The notes under the pieces are model-generated. The model saw only the letters and a program-made list of their open reading frames with translations, was not told the DNA's origin and searched no databases. This document shows positions 124-47,842 of a stretch of DNA of 56,810 nt, one piece after another. Made by a program: the position numbers and the translations under genes. Position 1 is the stretch's first letter; the number at the start of each line of letters is the position of its first letter. The stretch covers positions 1 through 56,810 of the IMG/VR virus record IMGVR_UViG_3300013093_000003. One strand, written 5' to 3'. This stretch comes from a virus (taxonomy: Duplodnaviria > Caudoviricetes).

Positions 124-1187
124 GCGGTGTTGATTTTTTCAGCAAGAAGATAAAGGAAAAGGTCGGGGTCATTATTCTGGCGGGTGAAGGCGCGGCTACG
201 CTCAAGACGCGATTGCGCGCCATTCGCATTTCAAAGGGGCTAGACGAGGCTTCGCTTCCGATTGCGTGGTTGGGTGCCGTTCCGAATTTGGCGGACGCTG
301 CCGAGGTCGCCAAGCTGATTCCGAGGCTTAAGGCGGTGGCCTCTCTCTTTCAGGAACGTTACGGCGTCCGGCTGGGCATGGTTGTTTACGACACGCTCGC
401 GGCGACGTTTTCTCTGAGCGACGAGAACGATAATTCGGAAGCGTCCAAGATCATTCGCATGATGAACCACGTCGGTGCTGCAGTCGGTTGTGTGCAGGTT
501 CCGGTGCATCACTACGGCAAGGGCGCCGAGACAGGGCTGCGGGGGGCGAGTGGGTGGCGCGCAGGCTGTGACGCCGTGTTGTCCGTTACGTGCGACCGCA
601 ATCAGGTGACGGGGGAGACATCGAACCACTATCTGTCCCTGTCGAAAAACCGCGTAGGCGAGGAAGGGCCAATCGGGCCGTTCGAGCTGCGCAAGATAAA
701 CTTGGGCACCGACGAGGACGGAGAAAGCTTCGGGTCGTGCTACGTGGTGCCCGGCGCGCTCTACGAAGACGCAAAGCCTACAGACGACAAAGATAAAGAA
801 CATGACGCTCTGGCAGCTCTGTCTACCGGCGATTGGAAGAAGGATATGCAGGCCGGGGAGCTTTGGGCAGGGCACCCGATTGCGGACGCTTTTGACATGG
901 ATTTGGCCATTTCGTCGAACGAGAAGGCGGTCAAAACGCTTATTAAAGAATGGCTCAAAACAGGCAAATTGACCGAGTATCAGAAGATGAACGAGCACCG
1001 CAAAATGCGTAAATTTGTTCGGTCAACTGTGAAAATAAACGGCGAAAACGACGAAGAAAACGACGAAAACGAGCGTGGACAAGATGTAAAAATACAACTT
1101 GTAAGAAATGACGAAAAACTCGATGATACAAGTCGTATTTTAGCAGGTGACGCAAAGGTGACGCAAGCTAAGTCATTGTTTGATTGA
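1..1187 (+). CDS. 3' part of primase-polymerase/helicase (RepA/AAA_25-type helicase domain); gene starts at 55622
   Basis: Frame from base 3 has Walker A GQSGAGKT, ILAGEG, Walker B VVYDTL, HHYGK and RGASG; in frame with the ORF from 55622. Confidence 0.9.
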   Translation, partial: VSLPPALVKGLIPFEGVCFIGGQSGAGKTFLVCDLAVSLASGVDFFSKKIKEKVGVIILAGEGAATLKTRLRAIRISKGLDEASLPIAWLGAVPNLADAAEVAKLIPRLKAVASLFQERYGVRLGMVVYDTLAATFSLSDENDNSEASKIIRMMNHVGAAVGCVQVPVHHYGKGAETGLRGASGWRAGCDAVLSVTCDRNQVTGETSNHYLSLSKNRVGEEGPIGPFELRKINLGTDEDGESFGSCYVVPGALYEDAKPTDDKDKEHDALAALSTGDWKKDMQAGELWAGHPIADAFDMDLAISSNEKAVKTLIKEWLKTGKLTEYQKMNEHRKMRKFVRSTVKINGENDEENDENERGQDVKIQLVRNDEKLDDTSRILAGDAKVTQAKSLFD

Positions 1188-1308
1188 GGTTTGCGTCACC
1201 TCGAAAAAGGTGACGCAAAGGTGACGCAGCCGGCCCATACAGTTTTGCGTCACCTTTGCGCGTCACCTTCATCCCTAGAAGGATGAAGGTGACGCAAACG
1301 GTGACGCA
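1146..1308. repeat. Cluster of GGTGACGCA repeats with a hairpin; putative replication origin
   Basis: Six forward copies (1146, 1157, 1209, 1220, 1288, 1300) and three reverse (1192, 1246, variant near 1259); 15-bp inverted repeat 1260-1274/1281-1295; AT-rich DNA follows. Confidence 0.6.
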
Positions 1309-1348
1309 GTGTGGGAAACTAGAGTGAAGAATTAAATAAAAATGCTTT

Positions 1349-1361
1349 ATACAAGTTGTAT
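1349..1361. promoter_or_regulatory. Palindromic operator-like site ATACAAGTTGTAT
   Basis: Perfect 6-1-6 palindrome; related copies at 1092, 1126, 5530, 5560, 37945, 37959, 38590. Confidence 0.55.
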
Positions 1362-1604
1362 TTAACGAGGACCTAAAAACCTGTTTGGGTAGGCCAACCC
1401 CCGAACTTTTTAATTTTTAAAAGATGGTTTGGTTTGACCCCTTGGTTCCGAAAAGTCCCCTTGGGGGAAACCAAAAGGCGAAACCGAAATAATTTTGGAA
1501 AATCGCCTTATAAGGGTTTTGAAAAGTAAAACCCACCGAGGCTTTTTCTTGGCGGGTTTTTAAAAAGGCCGATTTCAAAAAACGCATAACGGAATCGGGT
1601 GCGG

Positions 1605-1712
1605 CCGCCCAGCCCAGCGACCGCCCAGAGCCTCGGACAGCGACCGCCCAGCCCAGCGACCGCCCAGCCCAGCGACCGCCCAGCCCAGCGACCGCCCAGA
1701 GCCTCGGACAGC
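1605..1712 (+). repeat. Tandem array of 16-bp and 23-bp units sharing core CCGCCCAG
   Basis: Units CCGCCCAGCCCAGCGA and CCGCCCAGAGCCTCGGACAGCGA in the order 16-23-16-16-16-23(partial). Confidence 0.9.
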
Positions 1713-1716
1713 AGGC

Positions 1717-2265
1717 TCAGGACGTCCGATAGACCGTGCTGCGGCTCACCCCTAGCGTTGCCGCGATCTCGGTCGCGCCCAGCCCCCGCTCCCTCAACTT
1801 GGCGATAGCAGCCAGATCTGTGACAGGTGGCCGCCCTTTGCCGATATATCGGCCCGCGCGCTTTGCCGCCTCTATTCCCTCTCGTTGCCGCTCGGAACGC
1901 AGCGCTGTTTCAAATTCCGCAAAAACCCCCAGCATCGAGAGAAACGCCACACCAGCAGGCGTTGACGCGTCAATCGGCTGTTGCGTCGCTCGCAACGTGA
2001 CGCGTGATTTTTTCAGCTCATCCAGAATATTGGCCAGATCACGGATAGACCGGGCCAGTCGGTCAATGCGTGTTATCCAGAGCTCATCACCCGGCCGTAG
2101 GAATTGTAGCAGCGTGTTTAGTTCCTCGCGGCCCTGTCTCGACGTGCCGCTAATTTTTTCAGATCTGATTATCTCGCAACCGGCAGCCGTCAATTGTGCT
2201 ATTTGCTCATCCAGATTTTGCCCCGTTGACGAGACTCGCGCGTAACCGTATCTCATTTTTACCAC
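1717..2265 (-). CDS. Small serine recombinase (resolvase/invertase family) with C-terminal HTH
   Basis: YGYARVSS catalytic motif, RIDRLARS, FAEFE..LRSERQREGI, HTH IAATLGVSRSTVYR. Confidence 0.95.
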   Translation of the reverse strand: MVKMRYGYARVSSTGQNLDEQIAQLTAAGCEIIRSEKISGTSRQGREELNTLLQFLRPGDELWITRIDRLARSIRDLANILDELKKSRVTLRATQQPIDASTPAGVAFLSMLGVFAEFETALRSERQREGIEAAKRAGRYIGKGRPPVTDLAAIAKLRERGLGATEIAATLGVSRSTVYRTS

Positions 2266-2382
2266 TCCTCGTTTTTAAATTGACTTGTTGCCACCTAGCA
2301 GCCCCGCCAACGGGCAACAGCCGTCACAGGCTAGCACGTATGCAATAGGCCAAGAGCTTGCCGCCCTTGGCCTCCTAATTGA

Positions 2383-2469
2383 TTATTTTGAATCTCGTAT
2401 CGCTTGTATCGTTGCCGCCATTAACCCAATCGGGATCAGCAGCAGCGCGAGCGGCAATAGATAATCCAT
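2383..2469 (-). CDS. Small membrane peptide (28 aa)
   Basis: MDYLLPLALLLIPIGLMAATIQAIRDSK, hydrophobic, follows the upstream ORF with GAGGG RBS; not in ORF track. Confidence 0.45.
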   Translation of the reverse strand: MDYLLPLALLLIPIGLMAATIQAIRDSK

Positions 2470-2479
2470 CGCGCCGCCC

Positions 2480-2626
2480 TCACTGTTGCCTCGCCCAGAT
2501 TGCAGCATCCCGCGCGGACTCAAATGCCATAAACCCGCCATAAACTCGCACCGTCACAGCCGCCCATGGCGCAATTTTGCGCGCGCTTTTACGGCTCTTT
2601 ACAGCCTCTAAAAATAGTTGTCGCAT
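2480..2626 (-). CDS. Hypothetical early protein (48 aa)
   Basis: ATG at 2626 after G-rich RBS; MRQLFLEAVKSRK...; co-oriented with the early cluster. Confidence 0.6.
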   Translation of the reverse strand: MRQLFLEAVKSRKSARKIAPWAAVTVRVYGGFMAFESARDAAIWARQQ

Positions 2627-2943
2627 ATTAACCCCCCTGTTTTTTGCAGTAATGACTCTATCAGGCGCAGCGTTGCCACGGCATCGTCCGGCGCAGCGCA
2701 GCCCAGATGTCCGCCGTTTGCTATCAGCCGCCCCAGCCACGGCGCAGCGCGCGCCAACGCGTCCCGCATATCAGGTGCAGCCGCGATCAGGTCACAGTTG
2801 GCCTCGATCTCGGAATCAGACAGCCCAGCGCTGCAAATTTGCGCGATATGGGTGTTACGGCCCGCAAACACGGTTGCGTGTTTGCGCGTCGGCGAGATAT
2901 TGCGAGACCACGGCCCGCGCGTATGTTTTGGCGTGTTTTTCAT
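2608..2943 (-). CDS. Phage hypothetical protein of the HTPGPW...LIAAAP type
   Basis: KHTRGPW and EANCDLIAAAPDM motifs common in phage early genes; AGGAG RBS. Confidence 0.75.
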   Translation of the reverse strand: MKNTPKHTRGPWSRNISPTRKHATVFAGRNTHIAQICSAGLSDSEIEANCDLIAAAPDMRDALARAAPWLGRLIANGGHLGCAAPDDAVATLRLIESLLQKTGGLICDNYF

Positions 2944-2965
2944 TTTTTAATCTCCTGTTAATTCG

Positions 2966-3565
2966 TTATTTTGTTTCGCCGGTGAATTTTGCCCAGCTCG
3001 GCGCACGTCCGGTCTCATCCCTGTTTTGCCGCACTGGCATGACCACGCCAAACACATCAGGACTATCAAACAATACCAGCGCAGGCTTCTGCCCAGCAGG
3101 ATAGATCGCGAATCCATCGCCGCTCGTTTTGCCCAGCGTTGCCGCCGCTTTGGCCATGACTGCCAAATATTTCGACGCAAACCAGCATTTCTCAACGCTC
3201 AACTCCGAACAATCCGCAGGCACGACTCGGCGCCAGTTTGGAAACGTCCCGTCGATAGGCTCAAACATGGTATTGCCCAGCATCCAGCGGGTGCCTGCCA
3301 TTTTTTCCAGCCCAACCTCGACCTGATTTTTCAACGGTTTAAACGATTTAATAACGTCAAACGGGATAATGATAGCAGCCGCTAACATGTCCGGATTAGC
3401 AATTTCGTGGCGTGCGCCGAGCAGGATATGACCATTCGTTGCCACCATCGTTGCGTGCTCGGTCGAGATCTCGACAAATACACCGGTCAGGTAATATCGG
3501 GCTGCCTCCGTAGATACGGCCAACGATACGGCGCGCAGCATGTCACAATTCAACATAGTTTTCAT
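2966..3565 (-). CDS. Truncated DNA polymerase III beta-clamp-like protein
   Basis: AVSTEAARYYLTGVFVE, MVATNGHILL and PIDGTFPNWRRVVP match the DnaN central-domain motifs; only 199 aa. Confidence 0.75.
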   Translation of the reverse strand: MKTMLNCDMLRAVSLAVSTEAARYYLTGVFVEISTEHATMVATNGHILLGARHEIANPDMLAAAIIIPFDVIKSFKPLKNQVEVGLEKMAGTRWMLGNTMFEPIDGTFPNWRRVVPADCSELSVEKCWFASKYLAVMAKAAATLGKTSGDGFAIYPAGQKPALVLFDSPDVFGVVMPVRQNRDETGRAPSWAKFTGETK

Positions 3566-3642
3566 TTTGTTTTCTCCGGTTTAAAGCAAGCCACCTCGGC
3601 GCTTTTGATTGCGCCCCTCGTGAGAGGCGCAAGATAAAAACG

Positions 3643-4002
3643 TCAAATTGCCCAAAAAACCCTGAACCCGGCAGCGTCAACGCAATCATACCAGTGCCTG
3701 CCACCGTCAATCTCTAACGCGTCCAACAGAGCCGTTGTGTGAGGGAATAACGGAAATTTATCGTTCTCCGGTAAACCGGCACGAATTTTTTTTGCCGCAT
3801 TTGCGACCGCAGCCGTTTGCCGGTCGTAGTTGTAACCGGTCGCAGAGCCTCTAGCACCGTCAATGCCGACGATGCGGAGATACGCGTCAGCGCGATCGTT
3901 GTCCTTGATTGCCACGTCAGCGATGTGCACGCCATCGCGCACAATAACAGCAGCCGACACGTTTCGAAAAGCGGTCCTTTTTTGCGTATAAACATCAGAC
4001 AT
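3643..4002 (-). CDS. Hypothetical early protein
   Basis: ATG 4002 after GAGGG; A.GYNYDRQTAA motif. Confidence 0.65.
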   Translation of the reverse strand: MSDVYTQKRTAFRNVSAAVIVRDGVHIADVAIKDNDRADAYLRIVGIDGARGSATGYNYDRQTAAVANAAKKIRAGLPENDKFPLFPHTTALLDALEIDGGRHWYDCVDAAGFRVFWAI

Positions 4003-4012
4003 TTTGAAACCC

Positions 4013-4108
4013 TCACATAAAAAATGAAATTGCAATAACCGCACCGCAGCCACCAACAGCCGCCAGCATCACGGTAAACGCCACCACGGCGCGCAAATTA
4101 TTCAGCAT
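4013..4108 (-). CDS. Small membrane peptide (31 aa)
   Basis: MLNNLRAVVAFTVMLAAVGGCGAVIAISFFM, hydrophobic. Confidence 0.45.
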   Translation of the reverse strand: MLNNLRAVVAFTVMLAAVGGCGAVIAISFFM

Positions 4109-4400
4109 CGACGTCACCCATATAAAATTCAAAAACCAGTTCCCGGCCCTCATTAGTGTTTTCGTAAATGCTAATAGACTCCCAGCCGGACGCGTCCCGC
4201 GTATATCCAACAATCCAGCGATTTGCGGCCTGATACGAGTCAAACGACTCTAATACGGTTTCGTGGTCACCTAAAATCACGTAACGCATCGCCTCTGCGT
4301 CCGTGCCATAGTGGGCGCGCAATGCGATGCGCAGCACGTCGCAGGATTCGACAGCGGCGATGCGCAGGGTTGTTACTGTTGCGGTTCCGGTGTTAGTCAT
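4098..4400 (-). CDS. Hypothetical early protein
   Basis: ATG with GAGG RBS; first gene of the leftward operon. Confidence 0.6.
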   Translation of the reverse strand: MTNTGTATVTTLRIAAVESCDVLRIALRAHYGTDAEAMRYVILGDHETVLESFDSYQAANRWIVGYTRDASGWESISIYENTNEGRELVFEFYMGDVDAE

Positions 4401-4432
4401 TTTGTTGCCTCGTTGCGTTGTTGATGTGTTTT

Positions 4433-4476
4433 AAAATATACTGTCCCCCGGATATGTCAAACAATCTGTTTGACAT
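4433..4476. promoter_or_regulatory. Divergent promoter region with back-to-back TTGACA in a perfect inverted repeat
   Basis: ATGTCAAACA-ATC-TGTTTGACAT at 4454-4476, between divergent genes 4400(-) and 4511(+). Confidence 0.6.
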
Positions 4477-4510
4477 TTTGAGATTATTTTTGTGCGTGCT
4501 AAAAATAACC

Positions 4511-5572: not shown

Positions 5573-5654
5573 AAAAATTGCCGCTCAACCCGCCTGTTTC
5601 CCCTTAAATCGAACCGTGCTATGGTGCCTCCAGTCTTAACCACCGGAAACCACC

Positions 5655-36348: not shown

Positions 36349-36959
36349 TGCTGCGGCACGCCTCTCTCGCGCTTCTAGCGCAACAGTCCTATTCAGGCCC
36401 GCAAACCTTACAGGTCGCGGGAGACGTGCGCGCCGACATAACGGAGTATACGACGGAAGTCGTAGTGGCGTGCCCCGGCACTCACCCGTCTGACTTGCAA
36501 GACTGGATTCGAGACGTTCGCGCATTCCCGTCTTATTTCAAGAAACTCGGTTTCTGCCATTCGGGCTTCGGGTCGGGCGGTATAGACCTTTGGTCTAAGC
36601 TGAAAGGCCAACTACCAAAAGACAAGCTTGTCACTTACACGGGGCATTCTCTGGGCGGCGCTTTAGCGCAGGTTCTCGCGGCACTGCACGTTGCCGAAAT
36701 GAAACAGACCTGCCGCGTCGTAACGTTCGGTGCGCCGCGCGTCCCGTTTATGCTGAACCGTTCTTTCAAAAAACGCGCCAAAATGTTGACGGACAGCGTG
36801 GGCTACCAACGGTCGGGCGACCCAGTTCCCGAAATGCCGACGTGGCCTTTCTACTACCACCCGATAAAAACGCAAAAAATCGGCGTTCGTGTGTTCGACC
36901 CAATTGAGAACCATTCCATTTCCCGCTATGCTGCTGACTTAGCGGCACTCAACCTTTAG
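36348..36959 (+). CDS. Lipase class 3 (alpha/beta hydrolase)
   Basis: PGT oxyanion region, HSGF, TGHSLGGA nucleophile elbow, TFGAPR, DPVP, H(S)I..Y. Confidence 0.9.
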   Translation: MLRHASLALLAQQSYSGPQTLQVAGDVRADITEYTTEVVVACPGTHPSDLQDWIRDVRAFPSYFKKLGFCHSGFGSGGIDLWSKLKGQLPKDKLVTYTGHSLGGALAQVLAALHVAEMKQTCRVVTFGAPRVPFMLNRSFKKRAKMLTDSVGYQRSGDPVPEMPTWPFYYHPIKTQKIGVRVFDPIENHSISRYAADLAALNL

Positions 36960-37985: not shown

Positions 37986-38201
37986 ATGTTTGACACTTAC
38001 AAATTTCTTACCGGCAATTGGCCGAACGCTGACGAGCTTTTGAAGTTCGCGCACAACTACGGCTGCTCTCATCTCAAGCGGCAAACCGCGTATAAGTGGT
38101 TTGAGCGAAAGTCCGTCCCTTCCGACTGGCTTCCTATTTTGCTGGCCTTAATGGAACTCGACCAAGGCAAGCCCATCTCTCTCGCAAAGTATCTGAAATG
38201 A
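37986..38201 (+). CDS. Cro-like HTH protein
   Basis: RQTAYKWFERKSVPSDWL motif; first gene of the replication arm. Confidence 0.55.
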   Translation: MFDTYKFLTGNWPNADELLKFAHNYGCSHLKRQTAYKWFERKSVPSDWLPILLALMELDQGKPISLAKYLK

Positions 38202-38605
38202 TTGAAATCGTCTTGGCTGGAGAGCCTGTCGGCAAAGGCCGTCCGCGTTTTGTAAAGGCCACCGGTCGGGCTTATACACCAGAAAAGACAGCGCGTTACG
38301 AAGATCGGCTCGCATGGGCGGCGCAAGCTGTCATGGGTGGTCGGCCTTTGTTTGAGGGTGCCGTAAAGCTCGAAATTGATATTTACATGAGCATACCGAG
38401 CAGCAAGCCGAAGAAGTGGCAGGCCGACGCTCTTTCTGGGGTGATTCGCCCGACCAAAAAGCCGGACTGGGAAAACGTCGCCAAGATGACAGACGCGTTC
38501 AATAAAGTTGTCTGGCTTGATGACAGTCAGGTTGTCGAAGGCATTGTGCGAAAATTCTATTCCAACCAGCCGCGTATCGTTATTCGTGTTGACAACTTGT
38601 ATTAG
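38198..38605 (+). CDS. rusA: RusA-like Holliday junction resolvase
   Basis: GEPVGKGRPRF, KKPDWEN..K..DA.N..VW.DDSQVV. Confidence 0.9.
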   Translation: MIEIVLAGEPVGKGRPRFVKATGRAYTPEKTARYEDRLAWAAQAVMGGRPLFEGAVKLEIDIYMSIPSSKPKKWQADALSGVIRPTKKPDWENVAKMTDAFNKVVWLDDSQVVEGIVRKFYSNQPRIVIRVDNLY

Positions 38606-38647: not shown

Positions 38648-38959
38648 ATGACGACGCAAGAGCTGATAGCTATTCTTAAAACCCAAGATCAAAACGCGAC
38701 TGTGGTTTTGTCGGCAAAAGATTTGTATTTTAGGGACGATCATTTTTACACGGTAAACACTGTCACGGTTGAGTTAGCCGCGAAGTGCTCTAAGAATTTC
38801 TACGCAATAGCTGGAAGCCGTGACGACGTAGCAGACGCTCGACACTACTTGGCTGACGGGAAAGAAATTCTTGCAGATCAAGTCGTGGTTTTGTCGATGG
38901 TTCAAGAAGATTTCGACCCTGAAAATTTAACGCTCGTAAAATCGGTGTTATCGTTTTGA
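38648..38959 (+). CDS. Hypothetical protein
   Basis: MTTQELIAIL...D..A.V N-terminus common in phage small proteins. Confidence 0.6.
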   Translation: MTTQELIAILKTQDQNATVVLSAKDLYFRDDHFYTVNTVTVELAAKCSKNFYAIAGSRDDVADARHYLADGKEILADQVVVLSMVQEDFDPENLTLVKSVLSF

Positions 38960-41364
38960 CACCGATGCCCACACAGTTAAGCGGAGCCGAGTTCCTCGCC
39001 TCTCGCCATCGCGCACTTCTTGCAGACGCTCCACGCGTCGGGAAACAGCAGCCTACTTACTGCAAAGTCATGACGCCTATTGGGCCATTGCCGCTCGGTA
39101 ACATTTGTGTCGGTGATAAAGTTTGTCACCCGAACGGCGGAGTTTCTACTGTCACTGGCGTGTTTCCGCAGGGTGTTCAGCCCGCATATCGAGTAACTTT
39201 TCGTGACGGAACATCTACTCTCTGCGGAATAGACCATTTATGGTCTGTGCGAGACTCCAATAGTTTGCGGAACAGTAAGCTTGGCCGTTCTCGCTATCGC
39301 ACTCTTTCGTTGAGAAGCATAACGCAAACCGGCTTGTTGCGAGCCGATGGTAAGTCGAATTTTCGCATTCCCGACCACGACTCAGTTGCGTTTACGAAAA
39401 AAGAATTGCCTGTTCCGCCCTATTTAGTCGGCGCGCTTTTAGGCGACGCGTATTTGCTGGGCGGGGTTGTCCTTAGCGTAGCCGACCGAGATTTGGATAT
39501 TTTAGACCGCGTAAAAAGTTTAATGCCGGCTTTGAACGTAAAAGAAAGCAGAACTGGCCCATCTTGTGTCGCGTATCGGCTAACCCTTCAGGACGCTCCG
39601 AGAGGTGAATTTTTTAAAATTATTAAGCAAGCAGGACTTGCGCAATATTCCGCCGACAAGTTTATACCCGACAATTATCTTATGTCATGCACCGAAGATA
39701 GAATCGAGCTGCTCCGGGGGTTGATGGACACGGATGGAAGCTGCGGAGTTTCTGGAAACGTGTCCCCAAGCGGTATTCATCGTTACACAGGCTCGGTAAC
39801 TTTTAGCAGCAGTTCTAAAACAATGGCTGTGCAAGTAGCTTGGTTAGTTCGTAGCTTGGGCGGTAAAGCGACGTTGTCGTCATTTGAGCGAGGCGAAAAA
39901 GAGGTAGACCATGTTGTGCGCATGCAAGTAGGGTTCTGTCCTTTTTATACCGCCTTTAAACGCGATAGGTGGTCTGCAATAGCAAACGCATCGGCGAAAA
40001 TCACGCGGGCTATTACGAAGATAGAATACGTTGAGAACACCGAACAGGTATGTATCAGCGTAGATGCGCCAGACGGTTTGTATTTGACCGATGATTTTAT
40101 CGTCACCCACAACACTGGCGCAGCAATTATCGCCGCCGATTACGTCCTTGCCCGCACAATTTTCGTTTTAACGACCGCTTCAGGCCGCGCCGTCTGGCGC
40201 AAAGCTTTCGCGGATTGGTCGTCGGCTGGCCGCACTGTGAAAGTGCTCGGCGTCGATAAGAACGCAGAACTGGCCGACGTGACGATTGCCTCGTGGGGTT
40301 CGGCGCAGAACATAAGCAACGCCCATACAAAGAACCGCGACTTGTTTATTCTGGACGAAGACCATTACGGCAAGTCTCCTGAAGCAAAACGCACAACGTC
40401 CGTTTACGGCAAAATGTATGACGGCGGCACGCAAATGCTGGTTGGCGGGGCTTTGCTCCAGCCCAACGTGCAAGCGTGGCATTTGACCGGCACCCCTATG
40501 CCGCACGACCCCGGCGACATGTATGTGCGTTTGCGTGCATCTGCTCCTGAAATGCTGCTGGAGAATAAAGAAAAAGGTTGGCCAGATGTGCTGCGCTTCG
40601 AAGATTTCCGTAAGCGGTATTGCATAATCCGGATGAAGAAGTTGTCGGCTTGGAACCGCATCCCTGTTGTGATTGGCGGTCAGAACGAAGCCGAGCTTAG
40701 TGCGCGCATTGAAGGGTTCTGGCTGCGCCGTTTACCATCCGACGTAGGAATGCGCCCGCCGTCTTACGAAACATTCCCGTTGCTTGTGTCTGCCACCCAG
40801 CGCAGATCCGCCAATGGCGACGTTGACATCGAGAAAGTGTTGTCCGCAGCCGAAAACGGCAACACGAAAGAACTTGAGATGGAGCTTGGCGTTTTGCGCC
40901 GTTTGACCGGCAAGATCAAAGCTGAAGCGGTCGTCGGCGCGATTGAAGAAGATTTCGACAACGGGCTCGATAAGACAGTGCTGATGTTTTGGCACACCGA
41001 AGTCGGAAACATGCTGGCCGAAGCTTTGGCCAAATTCGGGGTCGTGTTTGTTGACGGTTCGACGCCGGCACGCGAACGCGAAACCGCAGAGATTGCTTTC
41101 CGCACCGACCCGGCTAAGCGAGTGTTTATCGGCCAGATTCAAGCTTGCTGCGAAGCGATTGATTTGAGCGCAGCTTCGGTGCTGTGGTTCGTTGAAACAA
41201 GTTTCACGCCCGCCCATATGGCGCAGGCAAGCCAAAGAATTTCGAACGTCAAACAGACGCGAAATACATTCGTGCGGGTCTGCACGATTGAAGGAAGCAT
41301 TGACGATGCACTACAGGCATCGCTGATGCGGTTATGGACAGCAATTAACAAAGTCATCAAGTAG
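38956..41364 (+). CDS. SNF2-like helicase interrupted by an intein
   Basis: LADAPRVGK/T, ILDEDH, LTGTP, VDGST, EAIDL, QASQRI. Confidence 0.9.
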   Translation: MTPMPTQLSGAEFLASRHRALLADAPRVGKQQPTYCKVMTPIGPLPLGNICVGDKVCHPNGGVSTVTGVFPQGVQPAYRVTFRDGTSTLCGIDHLWSVRDSNSLRNSKLGRSRYRTLSLRSITQTGLLRADGKSNFRIPDHDSVAFTKKELPVPPYLVGALLGDAYLLGGVVLSVADRDLDILDRVKSLMPALNVKESRTGPSCVAYRLTLQDAPRGEFFKIIKQAGLAQYSADKFIPDNYLMSCTEDRIELLRGLMDTDGSCGVSGNVSPSGIHRYTGSVTFSSSSKTMAVQVAWLVRSLGGKATLSSFERGEKEVDHVVRMQVGFCPFYTAFKRDRWSAIANASAKITRAITKIEYVENTEQVCISVDAPDGLYLTDDFIVTHNTGAAIIAADYVLARTIFVLTTASGRAVWRKAFADWSSAGRTVKVLGVDKNAELADVTIASWGSAQNISNAHTKNRDLFILDEDHYGKSPEAKRTTSVYGKMYDGGTQMLVGGALLQPNVQAWHLTGTPMPHDPGDMYVRLRASAPEMLLENKEKGWPDVLRFEDFRKRYCIIRMKKLSAWNRIPVVIGGQNEAELSARIEGFWLRRLPSDVGMRPPSYETFPLLVSATQRRSANGDVDIEKVLSAAENGNTKELEMELGVLRRLTGKIKAEAVVGAIEEDFDNGLDKTVLMFWHTEVGNMLAEALAKFGVVFVDGSTPARERETAEIAFRTDPAKRVFIGQIQACCEAIDLSAASVLWFVETSFTPAHMAQASQRISNVKQTRNTFVRVCTIEGSIDDALQASLMRLWTAINKVIK
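39046..40113 (+). mobile_element. Class 3 intein (356 aa) with LAGLIDADG endonuclease
   Basis: Begins QQP after Walker A GK and ends VTHN/T; DHLW, VCISV, VTHN WCT triplet; GALLGDA and LRGLMDTDG motifs. Confidence 0.9.
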
Positions 41365-41373: not shown

Positions 41374-42270
41374 GTGTCAATTAAGATCGAAATTACAGCG
41401 CACCCCGAAAGCGGTGACATGGCAACCCAGCTCAAAGACGCTTTTGCGGCTCTGGGATATTTTAAATACCCGGCGCGCCCATGGCTGCAAACAACAGGAG
41501 AAATGACGTTCGCGTATGAGCCTCGGCATAAGACCGCCGTGGAAACCCCAGACGCGGCCGCAGCTTCTACGCAAGAACGCGTTGCAGAAGTTTTGGCGGA
41601 AGCCGAGAAAGCCGCAGTCGAAGAACCCAAGCGCGAACGCGGTCAGCCGTCCGGTGGCCGCAGCCGCCGAACCAAGGCAGAGATTGCCGAGGACGAAGCA
41701 GCAACCCAGCCCACGACCTCCCCTGTTGATGTGCTTGCCATATCAACTGGTGAAGAACGTATCGACCCTGAAGTCGTTGCGCAAGACGCCGTCGACGAAG
41801 CCGCCGAAGTGGCCGCGACCAAGACAAAGCTGACCCGCGACGATCTGCGGCAGGCTGTCGGCGCTTACTCGAAAGTGCACGGCATCGTTGCGGCGCAGAA
41901 GAATATCCCGCTCATTTTGGGCTGCTCGATAATGGAACTGCCGGACACCCAAGAAGATTTGTCCGCAGCAATCGCAAAAGTCGTTGCGGCAACTTTCACT
42001 GTAGATGCAACCACAAGCAAGCCTGAAGCGCCGCAGGCAACGAAAGCCGATGTGGTCGAATCGTTCAAAGCTTACATGGCCAAGTATCCCGGCAAGCTGG
42101 ACGGCGTTGATTTTGTGCAGCTTGACGGCAAGGCACTGTTGCGCGGCGTCTTCGGTGAGGAAATCGACCGGATTAACCTTATCCCAGACGAGCCCGCCGC
42201 ATACGGAAAAGCGCTGGCGGCAATCAACGCGGCGATTAGCGCAGACCCGTTCAAGCGCGGAGGCAAGTGA
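41374..42270 (+). CDS. Hypothetical Ala/Glu-rich protein
   Basis: AGGAG RBS; RRTKAEIAED motif. Confidence 0.7.
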   Translation: MSIKIEITAHPESGDMATQLKDAFAALGYFKYPARPWLQTTGEMTFAYEPRHKTAVETPDAAAASTQERVAEVLAEAEKAAVEEPKRERGQPSGGRSRRTKAEIAEDEAATQPTTSPVDVLAISTGEERIDPEVVAQDAVDEAAEVAATKTKLTRDDLRQAVGAYSKVHGIVAAQKNIPLILGCSIMELPDTQEDLSAAIAKVVAATFTVDATTSKPEAPQATKADVVESFKAYMAKYPGKLDGVDFVQLDGKALLRGVFGEEIDRINLIPDEPAAYGKALAAINAAISADPFKRGGK

Positions 42271-42629
42271 TGACTGTTGAACTCGGAAAAACTTACCGGA
42301 CTTACGCCGGCCACCCCGTTCGAATCTACGCTGTGGACGGCGTAGGAGAATGCCCTGTGCACGGAGCTTTTGAAGGCAAAGCGGGGTGGACTATGTTCAC
42401 ATGGACTGCATCAGGGTCTTGCAGTCTTAAGCCAACAGGTCCAAAGCATCTTGAGCTTGTCGAAGGCAAGCCGCGCATTCAGCGGGAATCGTGGGTGAAT
42501 ATTTACCCAGACATTTACACAACTACGCACCCGTCAAAAAAGGAGGCAGACAGTATCGCTACGAGGAACCGAATTGCTTGCGTCAAAATAGCAATCGATT
42601 GCGAAGAAGGAGAAGGTCTTGAAAACTGA
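42270..42629 (+). CDS. Hypothetical protein
   Basis: GKTYRT..G..VRI.AVD motif; coupled to its neighbours. Confidence 0.7.
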   Translation: MTVELGKTYRTYAGHPVRIYAVDGVGECPVHGAFEGKAGWTMFTWTASGSCSLKPTGPKHLELVEGKPRIQRESWVNIYPDIYTTTHPSKKEADSIATRNRIACVKIAIDCEEGEGLEN

Positions 42630-43911
42630 AATCGACCACGGCGCACGAGACCACGCCCAATGGTCTGCTTCGGCTACGGCGCGCAACTGGCAATGTCAGG
42701 GCGCAATGGCAATGGCCACCATTTGCCCCGAAGGCAAAGAATCCGAACATGCGGCGCGCGGCACGGCTGCGCACCAGATTTCAGAAATGTGCTTGCAGAC
42801 ATTCAGCAACGCCATTGACTATCTCGGCACCGTCGAAAAGACCAAGGTGTTCGACGTCGAGATTGACGAAGAAATCGTAAATTCCGCACAGGAATATATC
42901 GACTACGTGCGGAAACAGTCAAAAGACTGTGAGCTGATGTTGGAGACTCGGTTCTCTCTGGCATCGCTTGACCCGCCGTTTCAGGCGGGCGGGACTTGCG
43001 ATGCTATCGTTTTGAACGCGGCAGAGCGGCTCGTGGAAGTCATCGACCTGAAGCACGGCGTCGGCGTCGTCAACGCGAAAGAAAACCCGCAACTGCGCAC
43101 CTATGCTCTGGGTGCTCTGTTGTCGCTTTCCAACGACGAGGCAGCGAACTACGACCGGATTAAGGTCACGATTGTGCAGCCACGCGCACCGCACAGAGAA
43201 GGCCGCATCCGTTCGGAAGAATTTCATGTGGCCGACTTGATCGAGTGGACAAGCGAGCTGATGAAGGCCATGCACCGTTCAAAAGACGCGATGGATGAGT
43301 TCGCCAAGATCAACGGCAATCGCGTCTTGTTCGATGACTGGGCGGACAAGTATCTTCAAACAGGTGCGTGCAAGTTCTGCCCCGCCGAGGGCATGTGTCC
43401 GAAGCAACGGTCGAACGCGTTAAAAGTGGCGCCAGAGATTGCGCAAAAGTGGTTTGAAGATCCGACAGCGGTGACGCTGCCGACTCTGACCAATCTGCCC
43501 GAACTCATGTCGCCCGAAGAACGTGGCCACACTCTTGACGGTCTGCAAATGCTGGAAGACTGGATCAAAGCTCTCCGCAGCGTTGAGCACACAATGGCCG
43601 AGAAGGGCAACCCCGCGACGGGTTGGCAGCTCGTCGATAAGGAGAAGCGGCGCGCATGGGCTGCTCCGGAAGAAAAGATTGCCGCCGACCTCAAGTCGGT
43701 TGTGAAGCTGACAGACGACCAGATTTACAAGAAGACGGTTATCTCGCCAGCGCAAGTCGAGAAGATTTTAGGTGCAAAGCGAAAAGGAGAAATAGCGAGC
43801 ATGTGGCACAACCCGCCGACCACAGAAACGAATCTGGTGTCGGTTACGAAAACAACCCGCCCGGCTGCAAAAAGCAAGACCGCGCAATTTTTTGAAGAAA
43901 CAGGAAACTAA
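42619..43911 (+). CDS. DUF2800 / Cas4-like PD-(D/E)XK nuclease
   Basis: SASA...W.C, GTAAH, GTCD, VIDLKHG, NPQL..YALG, CKFCP...C. Confidence 0.85.
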   Translation: MKTEIDHGARDHAQWSASATARNWQCQGAMAMATICPEGKESEHAARGTAAHQISEMCLQTFSNAIDYLGTVEKTKVFDVEIDEEIVNSAQEYIDYVRKQSKDCELMLETRFSLASLDPPFQAGGTCDAIVLNAAERLVEVIDLKHGVGVVNAKENPQLRTYALGALLSLSNDEAANYDRIKVTIVQPRAPHREGRIRSEEFHVADLIEWTSELMKAMHRSKDAMDEFAKINGNRVLFDDWADKYLQTGACKFCPAEGMCPKQRSNALKVAPEIAQKWFEDPTAVTLPTLTNLPELMSPEERGHTLDGLQMLEDWIKALRSVEHTMAEKGNPATGWQLVDKEKRRAWAAPEEKIAADLKSVVKLTDDQIYKKTVISPAQVEKILGAKRKGEIASMWHNPPTTETNLVSVTKTTRPAAKSKTAQFFEETGN

Positions 43912-43914
43912 ATC

Positions 43915-44544
43915 ATGGCTATGAAGCGCAGTGAAGATTTCAAAACCCCAATGGGCCGTCTCGCTTATGCCCAGTCTCTCTACAAGCCGCGCGCGGCTGA
44001 AGCAGGCGGCAAAGAGAAATACGGCTGCACCCTGATTTTCAATAAGGCCGACCGTGCCGCGCTGGAAAAGGTTGTAGCGCAGGTCATTACCGACGAATGG
44101 GGCGTCAAAGGCATTGAGCGTGCAAAGGCTGGCCTTATCAAGTCGCCGTTCCTTGCGGGTGACGGCAAGGAAGCGCGTAATAAGACGACGGGCGAACTGC
44201 ATCCCGGCATGGGGCCGGACGTGTTCTTTATCCGGTGCCAAGCCAATGCTGACCGCCCACCGGCTGTTCGCTGGAAGTCGCCAAACATTCAGGAAACCGA
44301 AGCAACGGTCTATTCGGGCTGTTACGGCAAAGCGGTTGTCAACGTGTTCGCGTGGCACAACGACAAGAACGGCGACGGCGTGTCCTTTGGTTTGGCTATG
44401 TTTCAAAAGATGGGCGAGGGTGAACGTCTTGGCGGCTCTGGTGGTGTTGACGTAGACAGGCACTTTGAGAAGATCGAAGATGCGGGCGAAGCGCCGGAGT
44501 CCACAAAGGGCGGTGCTGGCGCCGGCGGATTGTTCGGAGAGTAG
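43915..44544 (+). CDS. ssDNA-binding protein (DUF2815-like)
   Basis: RLAY...KYGCTL, YSGCYG, GVSFGL...Q....GERLGG. Confidence 0.85.
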   Translation: MAMKRSEDFKTPMGRLAYAQSLYKPRAAEAGGKEKYGCTLIFNKADRAALEKVVAQVITDEWGVKGIERAKAGLIKSPFLAGDGKEARNKTTGELHPGMGPDVFFIRCQANADRPPAVRWKSPNIQETEATVYSGCYGKAVVNVFAWHNDKNGDGVSFGLAMFQKMGEGERLGGSGGVDVDRHFEKIEDAGEAPESTKGGAGAGGLFGE

Positions 44545-44592
44545 TATCAACAGCAGCGCCCGCATAGGGCGCTGCTAACAAAGGTTAACCCG

Positions 44593-45108
44593 ATGCGCCG
44601 ATACATACCCACCGCAGACGAATTAAGAACCGCAATGCTTTACGATAGAGCATCGGGAGTTCTTACTTGGAAACACCGTTCGAATGTTCCGACTTGGTGG
44701 AACACTAAATACGCGGGTAAAGAAGTAGGATGCTTGCTTAGAGGCTATGTCAAATTAATGTTTAACAAAAACGTGTTTTCCGCACACAAACTTGTTTGGC
44801 TTTACGTAACGGGTGAATGGCCAACCGCTGACATAGACCACATCAACATGAACACGTCTGACAACCGTATGGAAAATCTGAGGTTGGCCACCAAGTCCCA
44901 GAATGCCGCAAACCGTCGGGTAACTCGCGCCAGCAAGTCTAAACTGAAAGGCGTGAGTTGGAGTAAAGCTGCGGACAAGTGGGTGGGGCAGATATGCGTC
45001 GATAATAACAGGCTTTACTTAGGTGTGTTCGATTGCCCCGCAGCAGCGCATCTGGCTTATGTAGTCGCATCTGACAAACATTTTGGCGTTTTTGCGAGAA
45101 GCCGATAA
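44593..45108 (+). CDS. HNH endonuclease with AP2-like C-terminus
   Basis: IDHINMNTSDNRMENLRLAT.SQN, KGVSW, YLGVF. Confidence 0.9.
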   Translation: MRRYIPTADELRTAMLYDRASGVLTWKHRSNVPTWWNTKYAGKEVGCLLRGYVKLMFNKNVFSAHKLVWLYVTGEWPTADIDHINMNTSDNRMENLRLATKSQNAANRRVTRASKSKLKGVSWSKAADKWVGQICVDNNRLYLGVFDCPAAAHLAYVVASDKHFGVFARSR

Positions 45109-45135
45109 TTAGTTTCTAAACCGCAGCCAATACGT

Positions 45136-45164
45136 TTGACAAACTGTTTTACGTCTGTCAATCT
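45136..45164 (+). promoter_or_regulatory. Sigma70-like promoter with inverted TGTCAA
   Basis: TTGACA 45136, TGTCAA 45156, CAATCT at 17-bp spacing. Confidence 0.45.
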
Positions 45165-45197
45165 CGTATTGGCTGCTTCGTTTTAAAGGAGAGTAGA

Positions 45198-45428
45198 ATG
45201 ACTGAAGGCACGAATGTAGGCGAAATGGCGTCTTTCCTAGACCGGATTGAGCGTCTCGAAGAAGAAAAGAAAGCCCTCGGGGAAGACATTTCCGAAGTGT
45301 GGAAAGAAGCAAAAGACCGAGGGTACGACACCGGAATTTTGCGTAAGGCTTACTCCATCCGAAAGATGCAGAAAGACGATCGCGCGGTGCTTCACCTTTA
45401 CGTAGATTCGCTGGGGTTGTTTGACTGA
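45198..45428 (+). CDS. gapR: GapR/DUF2312-like nucleoid-associated protein
   Basis: FLDRIERLEEEKKALGEDISEVWKEAKDRGYDT.ILRK matches the DUF2312 consensus. Confidence 0.88.
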   Translation: MTEGTNVGEMASFLDRIERLEEEKKALGEDISEVWKEAKDRGYDTGILRKAYSIRKMQKDDRAVLHLYVDSLGLFD

Positions 45429-45438
45429 GGACACCGCT

Positions 45439-45664
45439 ATGAAACCGACACTTTCCAACTGCACGATTGGCCAATGCCGCTGGCCGCTGGCCGCTTTGGG
45501 ATACTGAATCTTTCCCGACCGTTGACGAAGCATTTGTTTGCGGAGCACCAGCGCGCAAGAGCTATTGCGACACGCATCACAAGCTGGCTTACGAACCTGC
45601 GCCAAAAGTTTATGCGCCGCGCAAACCGAAGCAAGAGGCACCCCATGACAGAATCAACTTTTGA
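45439..45664 (+). pseudogene. gcrA: GcrA C-terminal-domain-like gene, frameshifted by a 7-bp tandem duplication
   Basis: Removing one GCCGCTG unit gives CRWPLWD...FVCGAP....YCDTHHKLAY; as assembled the frame stops at 45507. Confidence 0.75.
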
Positions 45665-45893
45665 TGCGGTTTTCACGGCTGCAAAGCGCCACGGCCTGAA
45701 GCTAAATAACTTCTTCCAGCTCGGCGATATGTTCCGCGCGAACTGGCGCTTGGGCGACGACAAGAACACGTTTTGCAGCGAGTTTATAGACAACGTGGTG
45801 CCGTTCCGGGCTTTAGAAGAATCTTTGGCTGTTGCGATACGCACCATGCCGAAGCCGGAACCTGAATCCGCAGACTTAGACCTATTTGATTAA
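45645..45893 (+). CDS. Hypothetical protein
   Basis: GAGG RBS before ATG 45645; ends DLDLFD. Confidence 0.65.
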   Translation: MTESTFDAVFTAAKRHGLKLNNFFQLGDMFRANWRLGDDKNTFCSEFIDNVVPFRALEESLAVAIRTMPKPEPESADLDLFD

Positions 45894-45903
45894 GGAGAGA
45901 TTA

Positions 45904-46095
45904 ATGAGCATCACATCGCAACCCCGTTATTCCTACGAGACCGTAGAAAACGCGGAAGGCACTTTTGAATTTGAAATTTACGACGTGCAACGCGGGCTGG
46001 AGCCGGACAAGATTATCGGCTGGTTTCGACTCCGCGATGACGCGGAACAGGTTTGCGCGGTTCTAAATCGTGCGCAGCCGTTCTTAAAGCCGTAA
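45904..46095 (+). CDS. Hypothetical protein
   Basis: AAGGAG RBS. Confidence 0.65.
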   Translation: MSITSQPRYSYETVENAEGTFEFEIYDVQRGLEPDKIIGWFRLRDDAEQVCAVLNRAQPFLKP

Positions 46096-46404
46096 ATGAA
46101 GCCCCTGCACGTCTCCGACCATAGCATCGTTCGTTATTTGGAACGGTGCTATGGCATGAACATTGCGGCGGTAGAAGCCGAAATTTTGTCTATCGTCCAG
46201 CCCTACCATGACGCCGGTGCGGTTTACGCGCCAATCGGCGGCATGTGGGCGGCGATCAAGAACGATACGGTTGTGACGATACGCCAATCGAAACCCGGCA
46301 ATGAAGCCAAGATGAAGCACGACGCGGGCGGCGCGAACAAAACGCATCTGCGCGGCAAGCCTTTGCATTGGAAAGCCAAACAACGACACAGGAACCACCG
46401 ATGA
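46096..46404 (+). CDS. Hypothetical protein
   Basis: VSDHSIVRYLER motif; coupled. Confidence 0.65.
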   Translation: MKPLHVSDHSIVRYLERCYGMNIAAVEAEILSIVQPYHDAGAVYAPIGGMWAAIKNDTVVTIRQSKPGNEAKMKHDAGGANKTHLRGKPLHWKAKQRHRNHR

Positions 46405-46739
46405 AACGAGTTATCATTGAAAGCCCCTACGCGGGGACGCCCGAACAGATCAAGATAAACGTGCGATATGCGCGGGCTTGCGTGCTCGACAGCTTAATGC
46501 GCGGCGAAGCTCCGATTGCGTCCCATTTGCTTTACACGCAAGAAGGCATCTTGCGTGATGAGATACCGGGCGATCGGCAGATGGGAATGGACGCTGGCCA
46601 CGCTTGGTTAATCGGCTGCGACTTAGTGGCTGTCTATACGGATTTGGGCTTATCTATGGGTATGGTCGTAGGCGCTTCTCGTGCGAGAGACGCTGGCAAA
46701 CCTATAGAGATGAGAACTTTAGCGGGGTGGGGAGAATGA
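46401..46739 (+). CDS. Conserved phage protein (VIIESPYAG family, nucleoside-deoxyribosyltransferase-like fold)
   Basis: VIIESPYAG...GEAPIASHLLYTQ...DLGLSMGM. Confidence 0.7.
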   Translation: MKRVIIESPYAGTPEQIKINVRYARACVLDSLMRGEAPIASHLLYTQEGILRDEIPGDRQMGMDAGHAWLIGCDLVAVYTDLGLSMGMVVGASRARDAGKPIEMRTLAGWGE

Positions 46740-47842
46740 CAGTTCGTTTGGTTTGCGGCGACAGCCGTTTTGTTTTGAGCATGGAACCAGACAACTCGGT
46801 TGATTCCGTCGTCACTGACCCGCCCTATGCGCTGGAAAGCGTCGTCAAGCGCTTCGGCGGTGACGGAGCTGCGCCTGCAAAGGGTTACGGCAAGACCGGC
46901 GCGTATCAGCGCGCCAGTTCCGGCTTTATGGGTCAGAAGTGGGATACCGGAGAAACGGCATTTGACCCGCTGTTCTGGGTCGAAGTCATGCGCGTGTTGA
47001 AGCCGGGCGGTCATGTCTTGGCGTTCTCTGGCTCGCGCACTTATCATAGACTTGCTTCGGCCATTGACGACGCGGGGCTTGAAATTCGCGACCAGATCAT
47101 GTGGCTTTACGGTTCAGGGTTCCCGAAATCGCATGACGCTGGCGACGGGTGGGGCACCGCGTTAAAGCCCGCCCACGAACCGATTGTTGTCGCCCGTAAG
47201 CCGTTAGTTGGCACCGTGGCGAAGAACATGGAAGCATGGGGCGTCGGGGCTGTAAATATTGACGGGTGCAGGGTTGGCACCGAAATCGCAGGCTGCGGCG
47301 GAGGTGCAGCCGGAGGCAACACTTGGAACGAAAATAACAGCGGTCTTTGTAAATCCGGTGAAGCGCGTCCCGTAGTTGGACGTTGGCCCGCGAATGTTAT
47401 CCACGACGGCAGCGCGGAAGTTCTTGAAGGGTTTCCGCATTCAAAAAGCGGAGCGCCGGGGGTTCGGCGTAAGCCTCACGAAACAGGGTCGATGGCTGGA
47501 CGTCTCGGCCTGACTGGCGACGTAGAAACAGGCTACGGCGACGAAGGCAGCGCGGCTCGGTTTTTCTATTGCGCCAAGGCCAGCAAGGCAGACCGCAACC
47601 AAGGCGCGACCAACTCTCACCCCACAGTCAAACCGACCGACCTGATGCGCTACCTCTGCCGCCTCGTGACGCCACCAAACGGCATCGTCCTTGACCCGTT
47701 CATGGGTTCGGGCTCGACCGGACGGGGTGCGGTTCTGGAAGGGTTCCGGTTCTTTGGAATCGAAATGAGCGAAGATTACATGGCCATTGCGAAGGCACGC
47801 ATTGACGCGGCAAAACCCGAATTAGAAGGATTGTTTGACTGA
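46736..47842 (+). CDS. DNA N6-adenine/N4-cytosine methyltransferase (beta-class order)
   Basis: VTDPPY precedes HPTVKP and LDPFMGSGSTG. Confidence 0.92.
   Translation: MTVRLVCGDSRFVLSMEPDNSVDSVVTDPPYALESVVKRFGGDGAAPAKGYGKTGAYQRASSGFMGQKWDTGETAFDPLFWVEVMRVLKPGGHVLAFSGSRTYHRLASAIDDAGLEIRDQIMWLYGSGFPKSHDAGDGWGTALKPAHEPIVVARKPLVGTVAKNMEAWGVGAVNIDGCRVGTEIAGCGGGAAGGNTWNENNSGLCKSGEARPVVGRWPANVIHDGSAEVLEGFPHSKSGAPGVRRKPHETGSMAGRLGLTGDVETGYGDEGSAARFFYCAKASKADRNQGATNSHPTVKPTDLMRYLCRLVTPPNGIVLDPFMGSGSTGRGAVLEGFRFFGIEMSEDYMAIAKARIDAAKPELEGLFD

Follow-up and report, generated by a model that had tools for sequence, protein, structure and literature searches.

Several unrelated proteins in the replication module of an uncultured phage end in a short peptide built around Leu-Phe. 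The phage is represented by 56,810 nucleotides of DNA (IMGVR_UViG_3300013093_000003, positions 1 to 56,810; Duplodnaviria, Caudoviricetes), here called the window, which is a complete IMG/VR virus record with an exact direct terminal repeat of 123 bp and corresponds to a genome of about 56.7 kb. Four of its proteins (a primase-helicase, a GapR-like nucleoid protein, a small protein of 82 amino acids (aa), and a DNA methyltransferase) end in LFD, and the protein that binds single-stranded DNA (SSB) ends in GGLFGE. The tag exists, is selected at the peptide level, recurs across a clade of phages, and lies on a disordered tail. The phage probably uses one common platform to dock enzymes of its own. 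We give about an even chance to the reading that the tails are short linear docking motifs, specifically degenerate beta-clamp-binding motifs, whose hub is the peptide pocket of the host beta sliding clamp.

All five ends were found as a preliminary description of the sequence had given them, the four LFD ends at the stop codons stated there. The GapR-like protein (76 aa; 45198-45428, plus strand; PF10073, 68.6 bits against a cutoff of 22.6) carries SLGLFD at 45408-45425, with its stop at 45426-45428. The 82-aa protein (45645-45893, plus strand) carries DLDLFD at 45873-45890 (stop, 45891-45893), and the N6/N4 DNA methyltransferase (46604-47842, plus strand; PF01555, E 3.2e-28) carries ELEGLFD at 47819-47839 (stop, 47840-47842). 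The primase-helicase ends in QAKSLFD at 1164-1184 (stop, 1185-1187). Because of the 123-bp exact repeat, its reading frame is split over both ends of the window, with a 5' part at 55610..56810 (unique part to 56687; plus strand; phrog_1156 DNA primase, E 1.6e-22) and a 3' part with an AAA_25 helicase domain at 1..1187 (plus strand; PF13481, E 2.5e-27); the frame that crosses the repeat, 55610..56687 plus 1..1187, encodes 754 aa. The SSB (43915-44544, plus strand) is of the T7 gp2.5/Enc34 type (PF10991, E 5e-23; phrog_112, E 9.6e-27), and its GGLFGE (44524-44541) follows a Gly-rich linker. The last 12 residues of the SSB (KGGAGAGGLFGE) contain a single acidic residue, and the Phe is followed by two more residues.

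Two of the tagged genes required a choice of start codon. The 82-aa protein most likely starts at 45645, where AAGAGG lies upstream and which gives the same 82-aa length as its sole homolog, and the methyltransferase probably starts at ATG 46736, which is preceded by GGAGA and agrees with homologs that align from residue 45. Two other enzymes of the module differ in their ends. The DUF2800/PD-(D/E)XK exonuclease (42619-43911, plus strand; PF10926, E 2.6e-59) ends in AQFFEETGN (43882-43908), a near-terminal motif of a related, aromatic-acidic kind. The family A DNA polymerase (47842-50055, plus strand; PF00476, phrog_17) has no terminal LF motif; we looked for one at both termini and found none, the C-terminus being RYRKD and the N-terminus beginning within the exonuclease domain. 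An internal QSELFD of the polymerase was considered as a clamp motif and rejected, since it belongs to a conserved helix (xxLFxxIR) that does not retain the Gln.

The disorder of the tails was judged from a predicted structure for the 82-aa protein and from the Gly-rich linker sequence for the SSB. In the model, residues 1-67 of the 82-aa protein form a compact alpha-beta-beta-beta-alpha domain (pLDDT 86-95), and residues 68-82, the 15-residue tail with DLDLFD, have no secondary structure (pLDDT 54-57), so that the modeled tail has the anatomy of a short linear motif. The protein matched no Pfam or PHROG family, and a Foldseek search returned only weak rows resembling a double-stranded RNA-binding domain (E 0.07 or worse), which were not used.

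We next asked how often such ends would be expected. When 80 C-terminal tripeptides were drawn from the internal tripeptides of the phage, a set of at least four identical ones arose in 5 of 20,000 draws. At the internal [LI]F frequency of 0.0041, 0.33 [LI]F-x ends are expected among about 80 proteins, and four were seen (binomial P 3.4e-4).

Selection acts at the level of the peptide, not of a DNA motif, because relatives keep the tail with other codons and no promoter-like site was found at the tagged gene ends within 44500-48200. The LFD codons of the four tails are TTG TTT GAT, TTG TTT GAC, CTA TTT GAT, and TTG TTT GAC; in relatives, Leu is encoded by CTG, CTT, TTG, TTA, or CTC, Phe by TTC or TTT, and Asp by GAC or GAT. 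The nearest homologs of all four proteins, which use other codons, thus bear out the earlier view that codon variation favors the peptide, and the -35-like DNA motif (TGTTTGAY) that had been offered as its alternative is not supported.

The tail has been kept or reinvented in the nearest relatives of all four LFD proteins, a comparison of C-termini that the preliminary description had proposed. Among the best 120 of 659 GapR homologs, LGLFD ends only the window's protein (P0034) and its relatives P0035-P0037 (97% and 61% identity). Another of these 120, P0078, ends in ALGVFS, and the remainder, which include the proteins of Aureimonas, Sphingopyxis, Sagittula, and Pelagimonas, end in ALG[ML]x, as the listed cellular GapRs do, or have extensions without the tail. 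Compared with the family end Y..ALG[ML]x, the window's GapR has Y..SLGL plus FD, an addition of one or two residues. The 82-aa protein had a single homolog in a search of 5.8 billion proteins (P0154; 90% identity), which ends in EQGLFD where the window has DLDLFD, and two paralogs in a complete relative (G002) end in SSDLFG and VDDLFG. For the primase-helicase, we used the last 394 residues as a query and examined 150 representatives. The two best, P0155 (53% identity) and P0156 (50%), end in SDLFDGLSV and GVMGLFD, and P0270 and P0293 end in PASLF; an LF-type end was not present in the other 146 of the 150, including six whose alignment reaches residue 340 or beyond. A scan of viral contigs with the C-terminal half of the primase-helicase gave 63 pattern matches, none of which was confirmed.

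More distant relatives carry variants of the same end. In Rhizobium phage RHph_N65, the orthologs of the primase-helicase, GapR, and SSB share 29-44% identity with the window's proteins (29.5% for the primase-helicase) and end in EGIFD, LDIFG, and GLFE, respectively; two further phage GapR proteins end in GMSIFS (L241) and GMSIFD (L249). Among SSB homologs in polymerase A loci, 8 of 40 end in LF plus zero to two residues and 27 of 40 end in ...F-L-x after an acidic run, and nine SSBs in 16 further SSB-anchored loci end in GLFG, DLFG, DMFS, or DMFG. Homologs of the DUF2800 exonuclease end in SSLFD (L008), GELFD (L009), LLFDVIDD (L006), NFFEPVKN, SYFEAQT, or DFMEEN; an aromatic-acidic motif near the C-terminus of this exonuclease is kept across distant phages, and its flavor shifts together with that of the SSB tail of the same phage.

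The [L/I]-F-x tag is clade-wide and has many clients. In RHph_N65 (L236, MN988536.1), 13 of the 69 annotated coding sequences (CDS) end in [LI]F-x, where 0.31 would be expected (P 9e-18); a 32-aa hydrophobic open reading frame (ORF) is among the 13. The tagged proteins of this phage include RusA, SSB, a GapR-like protein, an endonuclease, a PAPS-reductase-like protein, and a helicase/primase, and nearly all of the tagged genes are early or replication genes. A complete relative (G004) has six to seven tagged ORFs, among them a resolvase of RuvC-like type and a small terminase with weak annotation, and Ralstonia phage RpY1 has the tag on SSB, two other proteins, and the large terminase. Across the 16 SSB-anchored loci, counting ORFs of at least 45 aa, 40 of 693 on the SSB strand end in [LIM]F plus zero to two residues, and 6 of 777 do so on the opposite strand. 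Pfam assigned tagged ORFs in these loci to RusA, Rv2179c-like 3'-5' exonucleases, Dam-type and C5 methyltransferases, and GapR. The clients are all DNA-transaction proteins: primase-helicase, SSB, GapR, RusA, the RuvC-like resolvase, the Rv2179c-like exonuclease, and methyltransferases of the Dam, C5, and N6/N4 types. The flavor of the tail is uniform within a phage (GLFE, GIFE, or DIFx) and differs between phages (L241, L249-L252, L236, L237), and in every phage of the Ile type the SSB retains Leu or Met.

Some carriers in these relatives are noted here in their own right. A small protein of G004 (L057:8133-8480) has the motif twice, internally as APAGLFDDEP and terminally as GAGLFD. Terminase-like carriers were seen in two phages: the G004 protein at L058:5614-6075, which has a weak TerS match, ends in GGLFD, and the large terminase of RpY1 (L237:17401-18951) ends in YNIFG. 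RpY1 also encodes a 188-aa protein annotated as a "clamp-loader subunit" (L237:15937-16503), upstream of the terminase with one gene between them, which ends in PDIFS.

The strongest pointer to a host beta clamp as the partner comes from the methyltransferase. Among 79 homologs aligned through to the end of the catalytic domain (of 82 matches, 3 were dropped), 25 have Qxx[LMF]F within the last 15 residues, corresponding to 21 of 71 distinct tails; these include QLDLF (three times), QLSLF, QLRLF, QRDLF, QGNLF, QGSLF, QAGLF, and QYDMF. Within the same methyltransferases, 26,693 internal windows of 15 residues were examined, and none showed the pattern. The LFD of the window's methyltransferase sits where the motif of the homologs does, immediately behind the final helix of the catalytic domain. 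We then searched 24 records carrying a methyltransferase with the canonical motif (8 estimated to be at least 90% complete; 10 proviruses) and found polymerase A (PF00476) in 0 of 24 and clamp (PF02767) in 0 of 24. The partner of the motif in those phages must therefore be a host protein, and the canonical form of the motif suggests the clamp. The clamp-binding interpretation given in the preliminary description gains support from these homologs and records.

Published descriptions of clamp binding, as given in part of PMC11139829, are in line with a degenerate motif. The consensus there is QL(S/D)LF, with Q-phi-x-[L/M]-[F/L] as the canonical form; the LF moiety alone binds the clamp, C-terminal motifs are common, and position 2 tolerates substitutions. 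Positions 4 and 5 are L-F in all five window tails, and a flexible C-terminal tail with an [S/D/G]-L-F core would supply positions 3 to 5 of QL[S/D]LF. The primase-helicase end QAKSLF resembles that of the delta subunit, in which AMSLF is directly preceded by Gln, (Q)AMSLF (PMC11139829, same part). A precedent for a phage protein that uses the host clamp, which we count in favor of this reading, is MuC of phage Mu, described in bioRxiv 10.1101/2025.01.04.631326 as needing the host beta clamp via a clamp-binding motif. In the arrangement that we propose, the primase-helicase, SSB, GapR-like protein, 82-aa protein, and methyltransferase, although unrelated, would dock on one common hub, the peptide pocket of the host beta clamp on replicating phage DNA. 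This would amount to a T4 gp45-like "toolbelt" that rests on a clamp borrowed from the host; binding of the tails to the pocket is the step that we infer.

Several observations weigh against docking on the host clamp. Gln is at motif position 1 in none of the five window tails: the GapR-like protein has S there, the 82-aa protein D, the methyltransferase L or E, and the SSB G, and the sole Gln, that of QAKSLF in the primase-helicase, sits one residue upstream of its place in the pentapeptide. An aliphatic residue occupies position 2 in two of the five (SLGLF and DLDLF, and not LEGLF, AKSLF, or GGGLF). Ile-Phe, which accounts for most tails in RHph_N65, L249-L252, and RpY1, falls outside the canonical [L/M] at position 4. 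The uniform flavor within each phage and the retention of Leu or Met by the SSB fit a co-varying phage hub more easily than a conserved host pocket. In addition, the tagged set includes SSB and primase-helicase, the two classic clients of T7 polymerase docking, and the phage carries its own polymerase A, with nothing to show that host clamps are loaded on phage DNA.

A broader form of the proposal, which we hold more tentatively and well short of even, is that a universal C-terminal [L/I]-F-x tag in this clade of alpha- and betaproteobacterial phages, RHph_N65 among them, brings as many as a dozen early proteins together on the host clamp, in a T4-style toolbelt made from a hijacked clamp by phages that have a polymerase A of their own. 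The clients would be three unrelated families of methyltransferases, resolvases, exonucleases, GapR, SSB, and primase-helicase. A small clamp-like protein of the window's phage, described below, would in addition compete for the tails or strip host clients from the clamp.

Known docking systems resemble this one to different degrees. The clients of bacterial beta clamps (Pol II, Pol IV, Pol III alpha, delta, Hda, and MutS/L, as listed in part of PMC11139829) share with the phage proteins a short L-F-anchored motif on a flexible terminus, with [S/D/G] before LF in the phage tails, and the use of one pocket by many unrelated clients. The phage tails differ from them in that Gln is missing in four of five window tails, sister phages use Ile-Phe, and one variable residue nearly always follows the Phe; the phage clients also include SSB, primase-helicase, and a GapR-like protein, for which binding is only predicted. 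MuC is likewise a phage protein with a clamp-binding motif, predicted in our case, but it is a single client with a well-defined motif, compared with five clients here and up to 13 of 69 CDS in sister phages. Among phages with their own clamp, several unrelated proteins of one phage can share a C-terminal tail for clamp sharing, as proposed here: clients of the gp45 clamp of T4 and RB69 (gp43 polymerase, gp55, and gp33) carry C-terminal hydrophobic tails. Unlike T4, which has its own clamp and loader, this phage has a ring-less clamp fragment only, and its polymerase lacks the tail. In T7, the tails of the gp2.5 SSB and the gp4 primase-helicase dock on the gp5 polymerase. The window shares with T7 the SSB family (PF10991/phrog_112) and tails on both SSB and primase-helicase; it differs in that its tails are Gly/Ala/Pro-rich and not acidic, the Phe is not terminal, and there are many more clients. 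For the methyltransferase, the nearest parallel is DNMT1-PCNA, which couples maintenance methylation to replication in animals. In both cases, a short motif would tether a DNA methyltransferase to a sliding clamp (here predicted), although the clamp and the motif (a PIP box in DNMT1) are different. Our literature search turned up no description of clamp motifs on phage methyltransferases and no bacterial or phage counterpart of DNMT1-PCNA.

The most serious competitor, although we think it less likely than the host clamp, is a phage-encoded hub, most probably the family A polymerase used in a T7-like way, such that accessory proteins would have copied the SSB tail to ride the replisome. The SSB is of the T7 gp2.5/Enc34 type, and both it and the primase-helicase are tagged; part of PMC5686142 implicates the gp2.5 tail in contacts with T7 polymerase and primase-helicase. 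Polymerase A, SSB, helicase, and exonuclease occur in every tail-bearing relative that we saw, and the flavor of the tail, as described above, is uniform within each phage. In distant relatives, the SSB (DDDDFLD) and the DUF2800 exonuclease (DFMEEN) share another flavor, and the tail and its partner therefore seem to co-vary by clade. However, tails of the T7 gp2.5 type are acidic with a terminal Phe, whereas the present tails lack acidic character (GAGAGGLFGE) and hardly ever finish on the Phe. In the 24 tested records without polymerase A, the canonical clamp motif occupies the equivalent position of the methyltransferase, which also speaks against this hub, as do the clients themselves: methyltransferases, resolvases, and GapR-like proteins are typical of clamp or PCNA toolbelts and fit them better than T7 polymerase docking.

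A second candidate hub encoded by the phage is a clamp fragment, and the earlier recognition of such a fragment in the window proved correct. The gene (2966..3565, minus strand; PF02767, phrog_3007) encodes a pocket-only mini beta-clamp of 198 aa, made up of DnaN domain II and the second half of domain III. Its profile matches are clear (PF02767, 37.7 bits against a cutoff of 27; phrog_3007, E 2.6e-30), and its structural model is confident (pLDDT 90.8), aligning to residues 126-366 of DnaN in VIA-align with Z 17-18 and a root mean square deviation of 2.1-2.5 over 169-173 residues. The profile covers residues 140-258 and 307-366 of Pseudomonas aeruginosa DnaN; domain I is missing, as is a counterpart of residues 259-306, the first half of domain III. 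The dimer-interface residues I272/L273 of DnaN lie in this missing half-domain. The mini-clamp thus appears to keep the binding pocket and to lack the parts that close the ring, and is not a three-domain ring of about 366 aa.

The invariant and near-invariant columns of the mini-clamp family are the pocket motifs ATNGHxL, FPxWRRVVP, and VVMPxR. Residues R23, L26, T43, G45, H46, and L48 correspond to Escherichia coli R152, L155, T172, G174, H175, and L177, and P109, R113, V114, V174, and M176 correspond to P242, R246, V247, V360, and M362; further matches are P177 and R179 (P363 and R365). Subsite I, by the residue list in part of PMC11139829, is thus identical to that of E. coli at 11 of 12 positions, the exception being R176, which is I47 in the mini-clamp. 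The family comprises 33 proteins of 190-271 aa in the protein search and occurs on at least 221 viral contigs; its median pI of 6.4 gives no sign of direct DNA binding. Members also have a short extension past the DnaN-like end (VVMPxR), with a conserved P-x-W within the last 20 residues. Short phage homologs of polIII-beta with DnaN domains 2 and 3 only were noted in 2011 for 5 of 12 phage homologs (Kazlauskas and Venclovas, PMC3201878). The mini-clamp is similarly phage encoded and limited to domains II and III, but additionally lacks the first half of domain III. Our literature search on truncated phage clamps turned up no study of their function. A comparable short clamp form is beta* of E. 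coli.

Could this mini-clamp be the dedicated hub of the LFD tails, a soluble docking module that gathers replication proteins? The retained pocket, whose motifs are the most conserved columns of the family and whose subsite I agrees so closely with that of E. coli, the missing ring-closing parts, and its presence in the same genome as the tails favor such a role. The distribution of the gene does not, and we consider the role improbable. The mini-clamp was absent from the tail-bearing relatives searched, in sets of 5 and 15 (0 of 20 in all), which include 10 IMG/VR records estimated to be at least 90% complete and two isolate genomes; a local tblastn of the fragment family against RHph_N65 gave no match. 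Around 80 other mini-clamp loci, LF tails were not enriched, with 19 of 1,658 ORFs ending in [LM]F plus zero to three residues, mostly short ORFs opposite to the fragment. The gene itself is part of an accessory island on the minus strand, next to a serine recombinase. Because of its absence from all 20 relatives and the lack of enrichment at the 80 loci, the mini-clamp looks to be a separate accessory gene and not a dedicated hub. Hence, of the earlier proposal of a shared docking tag, the peptide-level tag under selection holds, and its link to the phage's own clamp fragment does not. Since the pocket is kept, the mini-clamp may still bind tails or host clamp clients in this phage. If the host clamp is the hub, a mini-clamp with the same pocket might also take up tails but would more probably act as a decoy or buffer for clamp clients.

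The minus-strand island (1417-4400) adjoins the end of the primase-helicase and contains the serine recombinase, a phrog_1273 protein, the clamp fragment, and two ORFs without a family. One of these, a 137-aa ORF (3643..4056, minus strand) upstream of the mini-clamp that matched no Pfam or PHROG family, has a homolog directly adjoining the mini-clamp gene in 5 of 80 other loci. The phrog_1273 protein has a paralog in the window, the pair lying at 2608-2943 (minus strand), directly downstream of the mini-clamp, and at 53529-54035 (minus strand).

A chance as slim as that of the mini-clamp hub attaches to the tail being another kind of C-terminal signal, such as a degron by which a host protease would clear early proteins on schedule, or a tag read by some other host factor, for example the partners of the host SSB tip. 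Bacterial SSB ends in D-I-P-F, which D-I-F-x recalls; the tagged genes of RHph_N65 are, as noted, nearly all early or replication genes, and weakly annotated terminase subunits are tagged in G004 and RpY1. Yet we know of no protease degron of the LF-x form, although no search aimed at one was made, and SSB-tip pockets require a terminal Phe carboxylate, whereas a variable residue follows the Phe here. The canonical Q-containing clamp motifs on methyltransferase homologs point elsewhere as well. Finally, a DNA-level, -35-like motif at gene ends, or simple chance, is barely credible: three of the four window tails do use the identical nine bases TTGTTTGAY, which have no further copy on the plus strand, but relatives keep the peptide with different codons, the ends have no promoter-like site, and the probability of chance is put at 2.5e-4 to 3.4e-4 in the window and at 9e-18 in RHph_N65.

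If the tails do bind the host clamp, then phages with their own replication enzymes would still organize replication, recombination, methylation, and chromosome structuring on a borrowed hub. One cheap, transferable peptide would account for the way in which new genes, once acquired, are connected to the phage replisome; for GapR, the gain amounted to just one or two residues. The methyltransferase would provide a bacterial counterpart of DNMT1-PCNA coupling, and the clamp pocket would be a point of phage-host conflict in which pocket-only mini-clamps are a possible weapon or buffer. Should the hub instead be a phage protein, the same data would define a new multi-client docking system. RHph_N65 and Rhizobium phaseoli form a cultured pair in which the idea of the tag is directly testable.

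The host of the window's phage is likely alphaproteobacterial, because RHph_N65 is the closest cultured phage by polymerase A (45% identity) and because a gene of the GapR family is present, GapR being alphaproteobacterial according to published abstracts. Megablast against deposited phages found no close relative and a single 48-base match, and a polymerase A scan of genome contigs gave no host clue, yielding only 10 distant relatives of about 30% identity (Firmicutes and Bacteroidota).

The replication module holds several further genes. RusA (38198-38605, plus strand) was assigned by Pfam/PHROG profile searches, and an HNH endonuclease on the plus strand is listed between the SSB and the GapR-like gene. 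Between the helicase and the exonuclease lies a 298-aa protein (41374-42270, plus strand) that is conserved in L002-L004, has no family, and has an invariant PFKR end. Its alignment has linker-like stretches and the appearance of helical repeats, and it could be an unrecognized part of the replisome; as a hub candidate, it returned nothing at 0.9 or above in an atlas search.

The SNF2-type helicase (38956-41364, plus strand) has 802 aa, compared with 432-465 aa in the close relatives L002, L003, L004, and L006. About 355 extra residues lie inside Walker A, where the window reads PRVGK|QQPTYCKV...IVTHN|TGAAII and the relatives read PRVGKTGTAI. There is a weak LAGLIDADG match, along with PHROG matches to intein-bearing proteins, and the insert looks like an intein with a homing endonuclease. 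Upstream of the module, a class 3 lipase domain (PF01764, E 1.2e-15) is encoded beside a GH19-type lysin (36348-36959 and 35409-36026, respectively, both on the plus strand); a lipase is unusual in a phage lysis region.

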